Positions 7,293 to 15,971 of a stretch of 40,894 bases of DNA are shown in pieces. The stretch comes from Candidatus Zixiibacteriota bacterium. Its GTDB lineage: Bacteria; Zixibacteria; MSB-5A5; CAIYYT01. Under the pieces are notes generated by a model. It worked only from the letters and a program-made list of their open reading frames with translations. It was not told the DNA's origin and made no database searches. Each line of letters begins with the position of its first letter. Position 1 is the stretch's first letter. The translations under genes were made by a program, and so were the position numbers. Where the stretch lies: the NCBI GenBank assembly GCA_040235515.1, contig JBECKX010000016.1, positions 1-40,894 on the forward strand, in the 5' to 3' direction.

Positions 7293-8492
7293 TCAACTGC
7301 CGGAACTGGAGGAGCCGTTCCTGGAGTGGGAGTCGAGTTCGATCGTGCCGACACCCTTCATCTCGATATTGATCGAGTTTTGCAGGGCTCCGATACCGCC
7401 GCGCAACAGAGTACGGGTAACTCTTTCTACTCTGATTGGCAAGTTATTCGTGTAAATTCGTCCGCTCTCGTCAACCTCAAGGCTGAGGGCCGCGGAAATA
7501 TTGACCGGCAGGTAGACCTTGCTGTGGTTGTTTTCGTTGCGCACCAGCAGGTCGCCATTCAATTCATCGGCAGTAATCGTAATTGGTGAGTTGGCGGTGC
7601 TGAGGATCGAGCGCCCCGGTTCGAAGCTAATGCCGTCGGCGTCGATTTCGGCAAACTCGGTGCGGGCATCGATTTCCCCGCGAACATCGATCAGAATGAT
7701 GCGACCGTTGTCGTTGCGGAGTCGAATCGTTCCCAACTGGCTATCGACCGATTCAAGCTGGATCGGGCGGTTGGCCGTGGTCACGCGGGTCGGACCGGTG
7801 CAGTTGCGCACCAGTACTGCGGCGTTCTCACAATCGATGTTGATCTTGTTGCGGATCCCGCTGACGGAGACATCGCCGAAATTGCTAGCGACATCGACAA
7901 CCGCATACTCGCCATCAATGCGGATGTTGTAGGAAGATGTCCGAACGAAGATCTTCAGCCGCTCGTAGCGAGGCGTAACGACTTCAACATCAACCGCTGC
8001 GGAGAAGTCGGTGCCACTCCAGGGTGGCGCGGAACGGGTTTCGCACGAGATCGAATACTCATTCTCGAGTTGCTCGAATTGCAGCTGGATATATTTGTCG
8101 AACTCCCGTGCCTGGTCCAGCGAGTTAGCTTTAAAGCGCTTGCGGTAATGGATCTCGGTATGCTCGACATCGCCGACATAAACCGAAAGCAACCCGTGCA
8201 GGTAAGATGATGCGGTGATCGAGAGGTTTTCGATGCCTCTGAGGTCGACTGTCTTGACGATTTCGTCGCTGGAATAACCGCGATTGCCGTCATGCTTGAT
8301 TTCCTCAGCCGCGACCTTGATCGAGTGCAACAGGAGCGCACAGAGCAAGATGGTAAGCAGAGGTTTTAGATGTATGACCCGAGATATTGGCATAATTTCT
8401 CTTGGTTCGAGATTCTTCCCGCTAAAAGGTTGAGTACGAGATTTCAACCGGTTTGTTCGATCGTATTTGGACTTGCCGCATATCAGCCTCAT
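7293..8492 (-). CDS. Secreted DUF4097/adhesin-like beta-strand repeat protein
   Basis: Signal-like segment LLTILLCALLLHSIKVAA and repeated motifs (SNFGDVSV, NDNGRIIL, TANSPITI). Start is either 8492 (ATGA-coupled) or 8393. Confidence 0.6.
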   Translation of the reverse strand: MRLICGKSKYDRTNRLKSRTQPFSGKNLEPREIMPISRVIHLKPLLTILLCALLLHSIKVAAEEIKHDGNRGYSSDEIVKTVDLRGIENLSITASSYLHGLLSVYVGDVEHTEIHYRKRFKANSLDQAREFDKYIQLQFEQLENEYSISCETRSAPPWSGTDFSAAVDVEVVTPRYERLKIFVRTSSYNIRIDGEYAVVDVASNFGDVSVSGIRNKINIDCENAAVLVRNCTGPTRVTTANRPIQLESVDSQLGTIRLRNDNGRIILIDVRGEIDARTEFAEIDADGISFEPGRSILSTANSPITITADELNGDLLVRNENNHSKVYLPVNISAALSLEVDESGRIYTNNLPIRVERVTRTLLRGGIGALQNSINIEMKGVGTIELDSHSRNGSSSSGS

Positions 8493-9390: not shown

Positions 9391-12030
9391 ATGATGGTGA
9401 AAATCCGACAGATGTGGCTGCTGTGTGTCCTCCTGCTGTTGATGGCGGGCGGGTCATCCGCAGAAGAGGTAAGCGGAAGTTTCCGGCTCGACCTGAATGA
9501 TCTGCGGCCACAGGCAATCAGGCGTGAGATGAACCGAACCGATGAGTCGTTTCAGGTCGGGATTGCGCTGTCGGGTGGAGGCGCCAGGGGCTTTGCGCAT
9601 GTTGGAGTGCTGCAGGCGCTCGAAGAACTGGGTGTCGATCTGGATGTTGTTGCGGGCACCAGCATGGGAGGGATTATCGGTGGTCTCTACGCGGCGGGGA
9701 TGAGCCCGGCTGAGATTCGTCAGGTTGCCAACGACGTCGATTGGTCCAGTTTCTTCTCGAACAAGCCACGCCGTCGCACGCAGTTGTTCACGCGACGGGC
9801 TGAGATTGAAGGCGCACTGCTGTCGGTACGCTTTGACGGATATTATCCTCAGATTCCAACAGCCCTGAGTACGGGTCAGAAGCTGGTCAACCTGCTGAGT
9901 GATCTGACGCAAACCTCCGGCTACTTTTCCGGGGGCGATTTCGCCAACCTCCCGCGCCGGCTCGTGATCGTGGCGACCGACCTGGTTTCGGGGGAGCGAA
10001 TCCTCTTCACCGAGGGTTCCCTGGTTGAAGCGATTCGCGCTACCATGGGAGTCCCGCTGGCGTTTACGCCGCTGGAGCGTGATGGCCAACTGCTGATGGA
10101 TGGTGGACTGTTGGAACCGATTCCGACACGCGCTGCCCGGGAGATGGGGGCCGATTTCATCATCGCGGTGAACACGACTTCCGACCTGCTGGCGGCTGAC
10201 GAGATCAGTGATCCGGTTGATATCGCTAATCAGACCACCACCATACTTTCTTCGGAAGTGCGCTCGAAGCTCCTTGCCATGTCCGATTTCGTCATCACCC
10301 CCCCGCTTGAGAACCTGAAGGCGACCGACTTCCGGGACCATGGAATCGCCTACGAGATAGGCTACGAGACGACGATGGCGCAAGCGGAGGAGTTGCTTGC
10401 CAGGCTACGGACGAGTCGCAGTGGCGGCGGGAAGTTTAAGATCGAGGGAGTGGACCTGCGCTGCCACAGCGATGAGAGCCACGGCGACTGTACGACGTTG
10501 CTCGATGCGATGTCGGCCTCGATGATTGACGTCGAAACTGACCGCTCCCGCGTAAGGGAACAGGTTCAGGAGCTGTTCCAGAGCGGCCGATTCTTATCCT
10601 TGAGTTATCAACTGACGCACGCAAGTGGGTCGGTGCTAGGAATTGATGCGGTACCGTTTCCGAAGATTGTGCGCGCGGAGCTGGAGGGGACAAAGGTTTT
10701 CGACAGTTCGGAGATACTCGCGGAGAGCGGCGCATTTCAGACGCCGGTCGCCGGAGTTGCCGATTTGTTGAGGCAGTATGATTCTATCCTGCGGCTGTAC
10801 CGCGACCGAGGTTATGACCTGGCGCGGGTAGACAGCGCGTACTACCGGTCAGAGGATTCCACACTGGTGATGAGCATTGCCGAGGGTCGGATATCAGGAA
10901 TCAGTGTGGAAGGAGCGAAGAAGACGCGCGATTGGGTCGTGACCAGTTACTTCCCGCTCAAGGCAGGCGATTTCTACAGCAAACCGAGAGCGATTCGCGG
11001 AGTGCAGGAGATTTTCAGCTCAGGGTTGTATGACAATGTGAACCTGCGGCTCGATGAGCGGGATGGTGGAGTCTGGATTACGATCATCGTGAAAGAAGCG
11101 AAGTTCACGTACGCCAGATTGGGGGCCCGCTATCATGAGGAGTTCCATCCCGAGTCATTCGTAAAAATCGGCTACGCCAACCTGTTCGGCACGGGGCATG
11201 AGCTGTCGGCTTACTCGAGATTCTCTGAGCAACGGAAGCTTTACCGGTTGCAGTTGCGGGCAGACAGAATCTTCCGCACATTCGTGACCTACAAAGTGCA
11301 GGGATATTATGCCAACAACAAGATAGGGCTCTACGACGGGGACGATCGCATCGGTCACAGAACCGATAAGCACTGGGGGGGACGCGTGGGTGTGGGACAG
11401 CAATTGTGGCGGTTGGGGTTGTTCGAAGTAACCGGTCGCTGGGAGCAGGTACGATTTACGCCACCCGGTGCGGAGGATCCGATCGAGCGGCGGGTGGTAT
11501 CGCTGATCGGCAGTCTCCACTACGACACGAAGGATCGCTTCACGTTTGCGCGGACAGGTTCGGTGCTTGAGGCCAGTGCAGAGGTTGCCAGCGATGTACT
11601 GGGTGGTGATGAGGTCTTTCGCAAATTCGAGGGCTCGCTGGAGCAGTTCTCCACGGTGGGACACAAACTAACTTTCCATCCCCGGGTTGCGATTGGTCTC
11701 TCGCAGGATGGTCTTCCGCTTTATGACAAGTTCTACCTCGGCGGTACGCGAACGTTCTTCGGCTACCGGACCGACCAGCTTGTGGGGGACAAGTACTTCC
11801 TTACCAACCTGGCGCTGCGGATCGGGCCGATCTTCAGTTTCTACCTCACCGGCCGCTACGATTTCGGGGAAGTCTTCGGGCGCTTCGAGGAGGTACGTTT
11901 CAAGGACTTGCGTCATGCCTGGGGAATGGAGCTTGCGCTTGATACACCGCTGGGCCCCTTCTCGATTGCCTACGGTCGGGCTGAGGCAAGCCTGGACAAC
12001 ATCTATCTCAACCTCGGCTACGATTTTTAG
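9391..12030 (+). CDS. Patatin-like phospholipase fused to POTRA domains and an Omp85/BamA-type barrel (PlpD-like, type Vd)
   Basis: Signal peptide; LSGGGARG, GTSMG and DGG patatin motifs; POTRA-like segments (YRDRGY, ISVEGAKKTR...SGLYDNV); ANLFGTG, FYLGG...FFGY, DTPLGP and terminal LNLGYDF. Confidence 0.9.
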   Translation: MMVKIRQMWLLCVLLLLMAGGSSAEEVSGSFRLDLNDLRPQAIRREMNRTDESFQVGIALSGGGARGFAHVGVLQALEELGVDLDVVAGTSMGGIIGGLYAAGMSPAEIRQVANDVDWSSFFSNKPRRRTQLFTRRAEIEGALLSVRFDGYYPQIPTALSTGQKLVNLLSDLTQTSGYFSGGDFANLPRRLVIVATDLVSGERILFTEGSLVEAIRATMGVPLAFTPLERDGQLLMDGGLLEPIPTRAAREMGADFIIAVNTTSDLLAADEISDPVDIANQTTTILSSEVRSKLLAMSDFVITPPLENLKATDFRDHGIAYEIGYETTMAQAEELLARLRTSRSGGGKFKIEGVDLRCHSDESHGDCTTLLDAMSASMIDVETDRSRVREQVQELFQSGRFLSLSYQLTHASGSVLGIDAVPFPKIVRAELEGTKVFDSSEILAESGAFQTPVAGVADLLRQYDSILRLYRDRGYDLARVDSAYYRSEDSTLVMSIAEGRISGISVEGAKKTRDWVVTSYFPLKAGDFYSKPRAIRGVQEIFSSGLYDNVNLRLDERDGGVWITIIVKEAKFTYARLGARYHEEFHPESFVKIGYANLFGTGHELSAYSRFSEQRKLYRLQLRADRIFRTFVTYKVQGYYANNKIGLYDGDDRIGHRTDKHWGGRVGVGQQLWRLGLFEVTGRWEQVRFTPPGAEDPIERRVVSLIGSLHYDTKDRFTFARTGSVLEASAEVASDVLGGDEVFRKFEGSLEQFSTVGHKLTFHPRVAIGLSQDGLPLYDKFYLGGTRTFFGYRTDQLVGDKYFLTNLALRIGPIFSFYLTGRYDFGEVFGRFEEVRFKDLRHAWGMELALDTPLGPFSIAYGRAEASLDNIYLNLGYDF

Positions 12031-13161: not shown

Positions 13162-13196
13162 CTCCACCGGACCGGTCAGCAGCCGATCCGGTGGAG
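13162..13196. terminator. Hairpin between convergent genes (likely bidirectional terminator)
   Basis: ctccaccgga...tccggtggag is a perfect 10-bp stem; no long U-tract. Confidence 0.55.
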
Positions 13197-13224: not shown

Positions 13225-14415
13225 TTAGATACCGATGATAAAGCCGGTTGAGAGGCGAGTCTCCTCGGTCTCCAGATCGTAACGAATTTCTCCAACCAGC
13301 CTCAGATTGGTTCGCAGCATGTGACCGACATGACCGGCGACGCTGCGATACTTGAGATCGGTTTGATCCGACTCGACCCAGTTGAAGAGCCCGGCGGCGT
13401 ACCAGCGTGAACGGTCCCCTTCGGGCCAGTAGATCAGTTCAGCGAATCCACCTCGCGTTTCCAGTTTGATATCGTCGTTCTCTCCGGCGACGGTGAACTC
13501 GGGGTTGTCGTCGCGACGCTCGATGAATTGCAGATTGAGCGTGACTTTCTCCAGCGCAATGGTGGCATCGGGGCCGATGAACCACACTTCATTGGTGTTA
13601 GGTTCACCCTCCTTGCCGTAGTAGCCGAAGCCGCCGAGGCGGAGGTACTCACCGACATCCTGTGAAATGCGCCCCACGAAGCATTTGTATTTATCATCAT
13701 CGTAGACACGGAATGATCCAGCTTCCGACAGACCGTTGCCGTTGACGATCTCGACAATGACATCAGTCCCCGATTCGAAACCATAGGTCAGCATGATTCC
13801 GCGATCGTAGGCCAGGTTGATCTGTGACGAGCCGGGCCGAACGGTGTAGATGTGATAATCCTCCAGCGGCAGGCGCAACTCTCGCTTGAAGAGCGGGTCG
13901 GAGACCTGGAACTGGCCGACATAGAGATCGAGTTCGCTGTTGAAGAGATCATTGAACATCAGGAAGGCGTCCTCGACGCCGGCCACCTCACCCCGTTCAT
14001 TCATGTAGAAATAGAAGTAGTAGGCGAGGTTGGTCGTCAACGAGCCGCCGGAAAGCAGCTTCACCAGATAAGGTGAGGTGAAGTCGATGTCCTGTTCGGT
14101 TTCGCTGTTGTACTGAAGGTGGCCTTCGAGACGAACCGCGATCGGAAAGTCACGAATGAGCGAGAGGTTGCGGTCACCGGTATCGACGAAGTAACGCGGA
14201 GCATCCTTATCTTTCAGTACAAAGCCATTCCCGGCAAATTCATCACCATAATCCTTGAGTGAAGGAAATGGTGCGTGGCAGGTCGTGCAGGACATGTTGT
14301 ACTTGCGCGCGAAGGCGGGAATGGCGTAGAGATCATCGTTCAGGAAGAGTGTAAATGCCGTGGCGAGGATGAAGGTCAAAGTCGTGAGCACGATAGCAGT
14401 ATAGAGTTTTCGCAT
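13225..14415 (-). CDS. Cyc2-like fused monoheme cytochrome c / outer-membrane beta-barrel porin
   Basis: Signal peptide, then AIPAFARKYNMSCTTCHAPFPSLKDYGDEFAGNGF, matching the Cyc2 AxPxFAR[K/Q][Y/T]xxxCxxCHxxxPxL motif. The remainder is porin-like amphipathic strands (YFYFY, LYVGQF, RLGGFGYYG). Confidence 0.8.
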   Translation of the reverse strand: MRKLYTAIVLTTLTFILATAFTLFLNDDLYAIPAFARKYNMSCTTCHAPFPSLKDYGDEFAGNGFVLKDKDAPRYFVDTGDRNLSLIRDFPIAVRLEGHLQYNSETEQDIDFTSPYLVKLLSGGSLTTNLAYYFYFYMNERGEVAGVEDAFLMFNDLFNSELDLYVGQFQVSDPLFKRELRLPLEDYHIYTVRPGSSQINLAYDRGIMLTYGFESGTDVIVEIVNGNGLSEAGSFRVYDDDKYKCFVGRISQDVGEYLRLGGFGYYGKEGEPNTNEVWFIGPDATIALEKVTLNLQFIERRDDNPEFTVAGENDDIKLETRGGFAELIYWPEGDRSRWYAAGLFNWVESDQTDLKYRSVAGHVGHMLRTNLRLVGEIRYDLETEETRLSTGFIIGI

Positions 14416-14428
14416 TTTGTCCACCTCT

Positions 14429-15817
14429 CTACGGTAGCACTTCGACCGAAGTCGAATGGGTATTCACGACGATGATTTCGGCTTCCTCAGCCGGAACTTC
14501 CAGAAAGTCGGCGACAGGTTTCACCAACTTCTGGTAGTTAAGAGTGGCGGCAATCTTCATCGGTCCCGGAGCGGCATCAACGGGAACTGTAAAGGTGAAG
14601 GTCTCAAGTTTGGTCTCGCGCGGCCCGATCCGGTAATCAACACCCAGGGTTTTGGTGTTCCATTGCTGGATCGTCATGCGACCCTGCGGATCGAAGTATG
14701 GCATCCGGAAGATACGATCGCCGACCGGCACACCGTCACGCTGCACCCCTGCAAAGGAATCATCGCCGAGCGCGATGCCCATATCCTGATAAGCAAGCAC
14801 ATCAGCGGCGATGGTGTACTCCTCCCCTTCGAAGCCCTTCTTGTCCACAGGTATGTGGTACTTGTTGCCCTTCGAATCGGTGGCTTCGACATGGAGCCAG
14901 ACGATGCGGTCCTCAACTGAGCCTGTCGGGAATTTGTGCCCCGTCTTCTGATTGAAAAGCGCCACGGTCAGCTTGACCGGCTCGCCCGGAACGACTTCCC
15001 TGATATCGGGGTGGATTCGCAGCTCGATTGTGCCGCGGACTTTGCCCGGATCGTGGGCACCGTGAAACAGATGCTGGCGGACATCGGGGTAGGAATTGCC
15101 CATCGAAGCGCTCACTCCGGGTGCATAGGTCATGTGACAATCGTGGCAGACGACGCCCTCGGCTGCATAGGGGCCTTCCTTCCATTCCAGATGGGTTGAT
15201 TTCACCCAGGCGCCGTACGGTGATTTTTCGTTGTGACAGGTTCCGCAGAATTCTGCGGTGCCGAGGAACTCCGACTTCGCCATATTGTGGGCAGGAGAAT
15301 CTCCTTCGGCTCGCGGGCCATACTTGAGATCGCCCGGCTCGGATATCCAGTTGAAGTTGAACGGCGTATCCCCCTCGAAGCCGGTAATGACGTGGCAGAC
15401 TTCGCACGACACACTCTCGTTGGCGCGGCTTCCTTCCGCCGGGTGAGGCGGTGGGACATCGCCTGCGAGAAACGACAGTGGTGCATGACAGCCGTTGCAG
15501 CCGGCTTTGACGCCGGCGACCATCTCGTCTTTTTCTGCGTGTGGGACTGCGAGTTTGAAGTACTCGATTTCATCCCAGTGGTGCGTGTAGGCCTGTGACA
15601 TCATTGCCTGCTGCCACTGCCGATAGATATCGGTATGGCAGGATGTGCCGCAGAAATCGGGAGTTTCGTATTCATCGTATTGCCTTGTGCCCAGCGCTTC
15701 CTCGCCCGCTTTGGTTTCTGCATTCAAAGCAGCGTTTGCAAACAGGAGCGCGACAAGCGCCAAGCCGACAACAGCAATCCTTGCCAGGCTTCTCGAGGTT
15801 CGGTGATTCCAGTGCAT
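14429..15817 (-). CDS. Periplasmic multiheme cytochrome c (4 CxxCH + 1 CxxxCH; c554-like family) with a C-terminal beta-rich domain
   Basis: Signal peptide; CGTSCH, CNGCH, CEVCH, CGTCH, CHDCH; HLFHG and GHKFPTG motifs. Confidence 0.88.
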   Translation of the reverse strand: MHWNHRTSRSLARIAVVGLALVALLFANAALNAETKAGEEALGTRQYDEYETPDFCGTSCHTDIYRQWQQAMMSQAYTHHWDEIEYFKLAVPHAEKDEMVAGVKAGCNGCHAPLSFLAGDVPPPHPAEGSRANESVSCEVCHVITGFEGDTPFNFNWISEPGDLKYGPRAEGDSPAHNMAKSEFLGTAEFCGTCHNEKSPYGAWVKSTHLEWKEGPYAAEGVVCHDCHMTYAPGVSASMGNSYPDVRQHLFHGAHDPGKVRGTIELRIHPDIREVVPGEPVKLTVALFNQKTGHKFPTGSVEDRIVWLHVEATDSKGNKYHIPVDKKGFEGEEYTIAADVLAYQDMGIALGDDSFAGVQRDGVPVGDRIFRMPYFDPQGRMTIQQWNTKTLGVDYRIGPRETKLETFTFTVPVDAAPGPMKIAATLNYQKLVKPVADFLEVPAEEAEIIVVNTHSTSVEVLP

Positions 15818-15971
15818 TCCAGATCTCCTTTCAGAACGGGTGGATTGATCCGCTCCAATGCGTAACTCTGTTCAACGCCCGGTAGTCCGCACTTTGTCAC
15901 TAAATGTCGATTTTCTACTCTTTTGTCAAGTTAATGTGCGCTCAAAGGTCGGGTTGCCGGCTGAAATCCAG

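Follow-up and report, generated by a model that had tools for sequence, protein, structure and literature searches.

The window analysed here, positions 1 to 40,894 of contig JBECKX010000016.1 of a Candidatus Zixiibacteriota bacterium (assembly GCA_040235515.1), carries on its minus strand a two-gene unit encoding a periplasmic pentaheme cytochrome c followed by a Cyc2-type fused cytochrome-porin. The pair is a real and widespread variant of the pentaheme-porin theme, and it questions the iron-oxidase reading of one clade of Cyc2. We recovered the features with which the original prediction had described the locus, namely two minus-strand open reading frames separated by a 13-nucleotide gap with an AGAGG motif, five heme motifs in the upstream protein (four CxxCH and one Cx3CH) and, in the downstream protein, the mature N-terminus IPAFARKYNMSCTTCHAPFPSL. 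The unit and the parts of the porin are as follows.

15817..14429, minus strand: pentaheme cytochrome c gene, an open reading frame of 462 amino acids (aa)
14428..14424, minus strand: AGAGG ribosome-binding site, inside the 13-nucleotide (nt) gap 14428..14416
14415..13225, minus strand: Cyc2-type fused cytochrome-porin gene, ATG at 14415, 396 aa
14257..14325, minus strand: Cyc2 signature AxPxFAR[K/Q][Y/T]...CxxCH...PxL, as defined in 10.1101/228056
13231..14139, minus strand: predicted 16-stranded beta-barrel of general-porin/OprP fold, from the structure model

We surveyed the pairing in the best 80 of 567 porin matches in species-representative genomes and in the best 80 of 541 pentaheme matches in metagenomes. 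Starting from the porin, the pentaheme gene was found directly upstream in 78 of the 80 genome loci, the two unpaired loci being cut by the contig end with only 62 and 203 nt of upstream sequence. The reverse search, starting from the pentaheme, retrieved the porin downstream in 73 of the 80 metagenome loci; the other seven were contig-cut, none having another gene in its place. The expectation of a conserved two-gene unit was thus borne out, and the two genes are neighbours in a number of genomes and metagenome contigs well above one hundred. A third partner was not found: antisense shadow frames aside, no other neighbour recurred in more than 19 of 80 loci, and no multiheme neighbour was shared. 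By record title the paired loci belong to Zixibacteria, Ignavibacteria, Aminicenantes, Bacteroidetes and Glassbacteria, some of the labels of metagenome-assembled genomes (MAGs) looking unreliable, and they include one cultured carrier, Rosettibacter primus (L100) of the Ignavibacteria. The nearest named homologs are zixibacterial, consistent with the suggestion that the host is not known as an iron oxidizer. Monoderm hosts, as implied by 'Eubacteriales/Clostridiales' labels, were rejected, the loci in question sharing flanking genes and mixing in the tree with those of Aminicenantes. An apparent pentaheme-porin fusion of 964 aa (P0241, one match among 4491 longer candidates) was discarded as a frameshift artefact, in which a truncated pentaheme is connected through meaningless out-of-frame sequence to the signal peptide of the porin itself. 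Distant pentahemes (24-29% identity) in the relatives were unpaired within 1.5 kb, and distant Cyc2-like genes there (L021-L026, ~25% identity) had no pentaheme of the family within the same distance.

The identity of the porin as a Cyc2-type protein is supported by the signature and by the predicted fold. The C-terminal part, predicted from the sequence to be a porin-like barrel, indeed models as 16 strands, with Omp32 and OprP as best matches (Z 23.6, root-mean-square deviation (rmsd) 2.9-3.2, 281-290 positions aligned); the mean model confidence (pLDDT) is 80.5 and the heme domain is poorly resolved. An OprP-like 16-stranded fold has also been predicted for Cyc2 (10.1101/228056), and 396 aa passes the Cyc2 length rule of at least 375 aa (PMC7005843), the signal peptide being judged by eye. 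The strict Cyc2 motif is present in 78 of the 80 paired porins, and the other two are one-residue variants that have the CxxCH. The protein likely falls in Cyc2 cluster 3, whose function was called uncertain by its describers and which occurs in iron reducers too (10.1101/228056, PMC7005843); the PMC7029218 supplements do not list the taxa of the paired loci.

For the upstream gene, the original proposal of a c554-like protein did not hold. The protein consists of the following parts, and its structure model (pLDDT 96.8) resembles a different cytochrome.

14429..15817, minus strand: signal peptide, helical five-heme domain and C-terminal immunoglobulin (Ig)-like domain of the pentaheme protein

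The best structural match was T. tepidum c552 (PDB 5ZE8; Z 30.2, rmsd 3.3, 344 positions aligned; TM 0.65/0.72; Foldseek E 2.4e-20), the second-best reaching only Z 10.7. A profile of 134 pentaheme homologs likewise gave T. tepidum c552 (E 2.7e-44) and MccSep (E 2.2e-20) as top matches, and the ExtKL model NF040886 matched with 55 bits (E 4e-15), below its cut-off of 250 bits. The protein is therefore a member of the c552/ExtKL(MccSep)/PtdA family of pentahemes with an Ig domain, part of the PHC superfamily (c552, ExtKL, Gsu2801, PtdA). The c554 identity had its basis in a weak Pfam match (84 positions, 26 bits), and Nitrosomonas-type c554, a tetraheme protein of ~211 aa with no Ig domain, gave only a local match (E 7e-7, ~110 positions). 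MccSep was absent from the fold-search matches, probably being newer than the searched structure library, and the ESM Atlas returned only unnamed or generic clusters.

Heme 2 of the polysulfide reductase MccSep has a Cys ligand, with Sec325 and Arg83 in the pocket, and the U325C, U325A and C239H variants of MccSep lose most of their activity (PMC13510729). The window's protein has no Cys beyond its heme motifs, and the MccSep Cys ligand, Sec325 and Arg83 map to V205/K206, S300 and D82, respectively; it thus belongs to the broader pentaheme family but is no MccSep. A search for true MccSep in 201 genomes of the phylum found none, the controls likewise giving no match. Members of the family from cable bacteria have been classed as potentially catalytic (PMC11976967).

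Conservation in the same 201 genomes separated the two partners. The pentaheme was found in 54 and the porin in 45; 44 of the porins were adjacent to a pentaheme gene and the 45th was a 115-aa C-terminal relic, an intact porin never occurring alone. Ten genomes had the pentaheme only: in seven an intact gene was followed by something else, in one the gene was broken and in two it lay at a contig edge. A second, stand-alone copy in one paired genome brings the intact stand-alone genes to eight. Genome G001, from the same genus as the window, has an intact stand-alone pentaheme between the same flanking genes and no porin. Across 126 non-redundant pairs, mean identity was 76% for the pentaheme and 60% for the porin, and 200 of 429 pentaheme positions were at least 95% conserved compared with 103 of 365 in the porin, which keeps 16 basic and 18 acidic positions. 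Since the pentaheme is better conserved and persists intact without the porin, dependence runs from porin to pentaheme. Such a pattern is more easily reconciled with an enzyme to which the porin is optional than with a carrier that serves an oxidase, and it does not support the earlier view of the pentaheme as the dedicated electron carrier of Cyc2; that the pentaheme is the core of the unit is, in our judgement, highly probable. The stand-alone copies were basal in a FastTree phylogeny, and a quick IQ-TREE tree (45 rows, with 31 of the 81 paired sequences) left the base open, with 4 changes. Elsewhere, C-terminal porin relics occur in three genomes with no pentaheme match (L019, L020, L222), suggesting repeated decay of the unit, and the broken pentaheme gene (L217, genome G213) lies beside genes for another multiheme cytochrome and, by eye, a NapC/NirT-like protein.

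The most constant parts of the pentaheme include residues that align with the catalytic pocket of MccSep.

15635..15652, minus strand: heme-1 motif of Cx3CH type (CGTSCH), C56-H61, in 120 of the 120 closest sequences
15569..15583, minus strand: H79-H80-W81-D82-E83, D82 aligning with the anion-binding R83 of MccSep (profile alignment)
15200..15205, minus strand: V205-K206, aligned to the heme-2 Cys ligand site of MccSep (C239/C240)
15101..15103, minus strand: M239, enriched in paired pentahemes (79/81, compared with 3/8 stand-alone)
14909..14920, minus strand: S300-V-E302-D303, with Ser at the selenocysteine position of MccSep; S300 in 120 of 120

K206, which from the alignment is likely the distal residue of heme 2, was kept in all 120 close sequences, in 81/81 paired and in 8/8 stand-alone pentahemes. 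H79, D82 and E83 were equally constant in the paired (81/81) and stand-alone (8/8) proteins, H79 also being present in 120/120 close sequences. The pocket residues are retained in all eight stand-alone copies and are therefore not docking residues. The residues specific to paired pentahemes are M239, T292 (80/81 paired, 0/8 stand-alone), P277 and G43, of which M239 could, speculatively, contact the porin heme or serve as its sixth ligand. M73, present in 120/120 close sequences, aligns with a His of MccSep and c552; in MccSep this is His74, presumably a heme ligand. The heme-1 motif is CxxCH in 5 of 10 stand-alone or contig-end copies. In the stand-alone pentahemes L214, L219, L220, L221 and L223, CxxCH stands in place of Cx3CH and M239 is lost.

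For the promoter-like region of the original prediction, a consensus promoter scan returned no sites, and a TTGACA core with the stretch downstream of it is common to the window and G001.

15899..15930, minus strand: likely promoter core, TTGACA at 15929..15924 with a weak -10, near letter-for-letter in G001

The same region of the window has direct repeats of TTTGTCA at 15893-15899 and 15922-15928, 29 nt apart, the second of which G001 does not retain. After merging of duplicates, 12 of 19 relatives' loci have a TGTGAW4-6TCAC palindrome 33-58 nt before the estimated pentaheme start; among the 19 are the locus of the window and one with a broken gene, neither of which has the palindrome. In a similar test the palindrome preceded the pentaheme gene in 25 of 158 loci (duplicates unmerged), and the count in AT-matched control windows was 3 of 846. 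The palindrome agrees with the Rex site TTGTGAAW4TTCACAA (PMC2883068). No enrichment was seen for FNR and Fur boxes (5/118 and 3/118, compared with 4.2 and 1.3 in shuffled sequences), and a CRP-type interpretation was dropped, since the inner bases of the palindrome and the box before rex fit Rex. A rex gene is present in 59 of 61 genomes, and a matrix built from 13 palindrome sites gave 42 matches in genome G000, with 29 of the top 30 intergenic. These boxes precede rex itself, cydA and five multiheme clusters, and a putative Rex regulon can be outlined in that genome. Rex lets go of its target genes when NADH/NAD+ is high, a behaviour in keeping with an electron sink, and none of 22 Aminicenantes-type hosts has a strong heme-copper oxidase match. 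We hold the role of electron sink to be rather probable for the unit.

Further Rex boxes in G000 stand before an ACIII-type cluster, before an ABC gene that neighbours a heme-assembly match, and before genes named by eye as citrate synthase, glutamine synthetase and glutamate dehydrogenase; boxes are located at C108:13600, C83:2752, C197:22134, C52:12504, C94:19636, C129:21647, C158:9929, C142:14613 and C53:30657. The labels ACIII, rplS, trmD, rimM and citrate synthase, as well as the FNR, CRP and Fur patterns, are provisional assignments. Also present in G000 are three genes of the COX1 family, two NrfD, one heme-lyase gene and numerous multiheme proteins. Searches of G000 for MtrB (PF11854) and NarG gave no match, and for its two large Mo proteins the best-scoring assignment is formate dehydrogenase. 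Its large multiheme clusters (C129:20276-32993, C158:10657-15414 and C52:8779-12488, with up to 26, 17, 16 and 11 CxxCH) are possibly other conduits, there being no MtrB-family match in the genome.

Taken together, we propose that the pentaheme works in the periplasm as a reductase of a small substrate, likely a cation, and that the porin serves it as accessory channel and one-heme relay, a reading to which we assign a probability of about 0.4. In an over-reduced cell, electrons from the quinol pool would pass through a membrane multiheme complex to the pentaheme chain and reach heme 2, where Lys206 or an open site would replace the Cys of MccSep. Where MccSep has Arg83 and Sec325, the pocket would present His79, Asp82, Glu83, Ser300, Glu302 and Asp303. 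From this composition, small cations or metal complexes, with soluble Fe(III) and Mn(III) as examples, would be the most likely substrates; the porin would admit the substrate, or the porin heme would reduce it inside the barrel. If the pentaheme is the core and the unit is an electron sink, we put a metal-cation substrate at about even odds.

Several observations weigh against this proposal. The window's copy and G001 are without a Rex box, the best Rex score in the window being 0.1 bits. Boxes were found in 0/13 Aminicenantes-type and 0/19 low-GC loci, 1/68 metagenome and 4/20 other genome loci (duplicates merged) and 1/10 stand-alone or contig-end loci, and the carriers are kin. In G000 the contig whose COX1 match is strongest carries the ACIII-type cluster, and a Rex box stands before that cluster too; Rex control therefore does not mean anoxic. 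Met73 replaces a His kept in MccSep, in c552 and in 60 of 72 distant homologs; as His/Met hemes are usually of higher potential, this would suit electron uptake. The residue equivalences come from a profile alignment at ~22% identity, in which the C239 register is possibly one off, and a pocket of His and acidic residues would bind either Fe(II) or Fe(III). All 18 paired close relatives had a strong heme-copper oxidase match, and 28 of 43 others had any match. Finally, the characterised Cyc2 proteins are Fe(II) oxidizers (10.1101/228056).

The pentaheme could instead act enzymatically on a small substrate other than a metal (hydroxylamine, NO or S, Se or N species), the porin being a channel, as proposed for ExtI with MccSep, and the porin heme a gate or sensor; we consider this unlikely, if the most serious of the alternatives. 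The fold family is common to the pentaheme and MccSep, nitrite and tetrathionate reductases are known to have Lys at a catalytic heme, stand-alone pentahemes exist, and the barrel is closest to the anion porins Omp32 and OprP, with basic positions kept as well as acidic ones. The MccSep cluster, moreover, includes the OprP-like porin ExtI, a proposed selenite channel (PMC13510729). However, the equivalents of Sec, Cys239 and Arg83 are absent, which together with the loss of activity in the MccSep variants makes polysulfide chemistry unlikely; the acidic pocket disfavours anions, and the porin CxxCH, needless for a plain channel, is kept in 80/80 loci.

Less probable is an inward conduit, in which the Cyc2 heme oxidizes Fe(II) and the pentaheme feeds ACIII or an oxidase in facultatively aerobic heterotrophs. 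The complete Cyc2 signature and predicted fold, the strong oxidase matches in the close relatives, the His-to-Met change at position 73 and an acidic pocket that could bind Fe(II) all favour it. Against it, the pair retains 76-81% identity in Aminicenantes-type hosts, among which none of 22 had a strong COX1 match, one below 1e-100, in a search of 50 of the 80 genomes for respiratory genes (7 near 1e-53, 1 fragment and 14 none, in MAGs whose completeness is not given); a bd oxidase was found in 14 of the 22, and 7 had neither a COX1-family match nor a bd oxidase. In addition, the predicted Rex operators would turn the unit on in a cell already rich in NADH, the pentaheme also occurs where the porin is missing, and the cluster-3 proteins are, as noted above, of uncertain function and found in iron reducers as well. 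An outward wire, in which a non-catalytic pentaheme charges the Cyc2 heme and this reduces humic quinones or soluble metals in the barrel, is the least probable, because the invariant pocket in stand-alone copies is not needed by a wire and the higher conservation of the pentaheme is unexpected for one, although Rex operators, hosts without strong oxidases, the paired-specific M239, T292, P277 and G43 and the overlay of four family hemes on archaeal nanowire hemes (PMC11976967) would agree with it.

The unit is flanked by an EamA transporter gene and by a convergent yfiT gene, which matches NF009807 over its cut-off, and a hairpin lies between the unit and the latter.

13162..13196, no strand: GC-rich hairpin between the two-gene unit and the convergent yfiT gene

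The closing hairpin of the original prediction is confirmed (z -4.5; none of 200 shuffled sequences scored as well), but it has no U-tail and is absent from the output of the terminator scan; it is likely a terminator or an RNA-protecting stem. Elsewhere in the window, 9391-12030 encodes an ordinary Patatin-POTRA-Omp85 fusion of PlpD type, and 7293-8492 a 399-aa signal-peptide protein without a Pfam match.

Pentaheme-porin neighbours are known from ExtI-ExtKL and from PtdA-PtdB in a seven-gene operon. In the extHIJKLMNOPQS cluster of Geobacter sulfurreducens, MccSep/ExtKL is likewise a periplasmic pentaheme with an Ig-like C-terminal domain, and ExtI, encoded in the same cluster, is an OprP-like porin similar in fold to that of the unit. 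Unlike MccSep, however, the window's pentaheme has no Sec, no Cys ligand and an Asp at the Arg83 position, and unlike ExtI, which has no heme motif, the window's porin carries a CxxCH; the ext cluster has ten genes, the unit two. In ptdABCDEFG, a pentaheme that has a beta-sandwich at its C-terminus is also followed directly by a porin gene; PtdB, compared here by its description, is a porin for which no heme is named, and ptdC-G are absent from the 80 loci here. T. tepidum c552 shares ~22% identity with the window's pentaheme and has Cys in place of Lys206 and His in place of Met73. Cyc2/Cyt572 have the N-terminal signature, single CxxCH and predicted 16-stranded OprP-like barrel of the window's porin, which in contrast is tied to a c552/ExtKL-family pentaheme and not to Cyc1 or rusticyanin; the paired hosts are heterotrophs, some without a strong oxidase, with predicted Rex operators in part of the range. 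MtrAB/MtoAB also combine a porin gene with a periplasmic multiheme cytochrome gene, but the 26-28-strand MtrB holds a multiheme wire, which a 16-strand barrel cannot. Cyc2 calls have been published for Zixibacteria, Ignavibacteriales and Aminicenantes (PMC7005843 among the sources). In the literature covered, which leaves out most subscription journals, we found no description of a heme-bearing Cyc2 paired with a pentaheme in a two-gene unit, of the pocket or of the Rex box.

Cyc2 is used more than any other genomic marker to call iron oxidation, and what its divergent homologs do in organisms not known as iron oxidizers is openly uncertain (10.1101/228056). One large Cyc2 clade, present in 44 of 201 genomes of this phylum and in other phyla, now gains a fixed partner with candidate active-site residues, and a regulatory handle and a cultured carrier, Rosettibacter primus, make the question of its role testable. 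A second outcome is the definition, within the newly characterised MccSep fold, of a branch that is highly conserved and has no Sec. In its boldest form, which we regard as doubtful, the unit would be a widespread, hitherto unrecognised respiratory metal reductase with a new heme and His/carboxylate metal site on the MccSep scaffold, docking through Met239 on the Cyc2 heme to give a six-heme chain, with Cyc2 run backwards under NADH control. If the metal-reductase reading is true, many 'Cyc2 iron oxidizers' of sediment and groundwater among the Zixibacteria, Ignavibacteria and Aminicenantes would be reducers.

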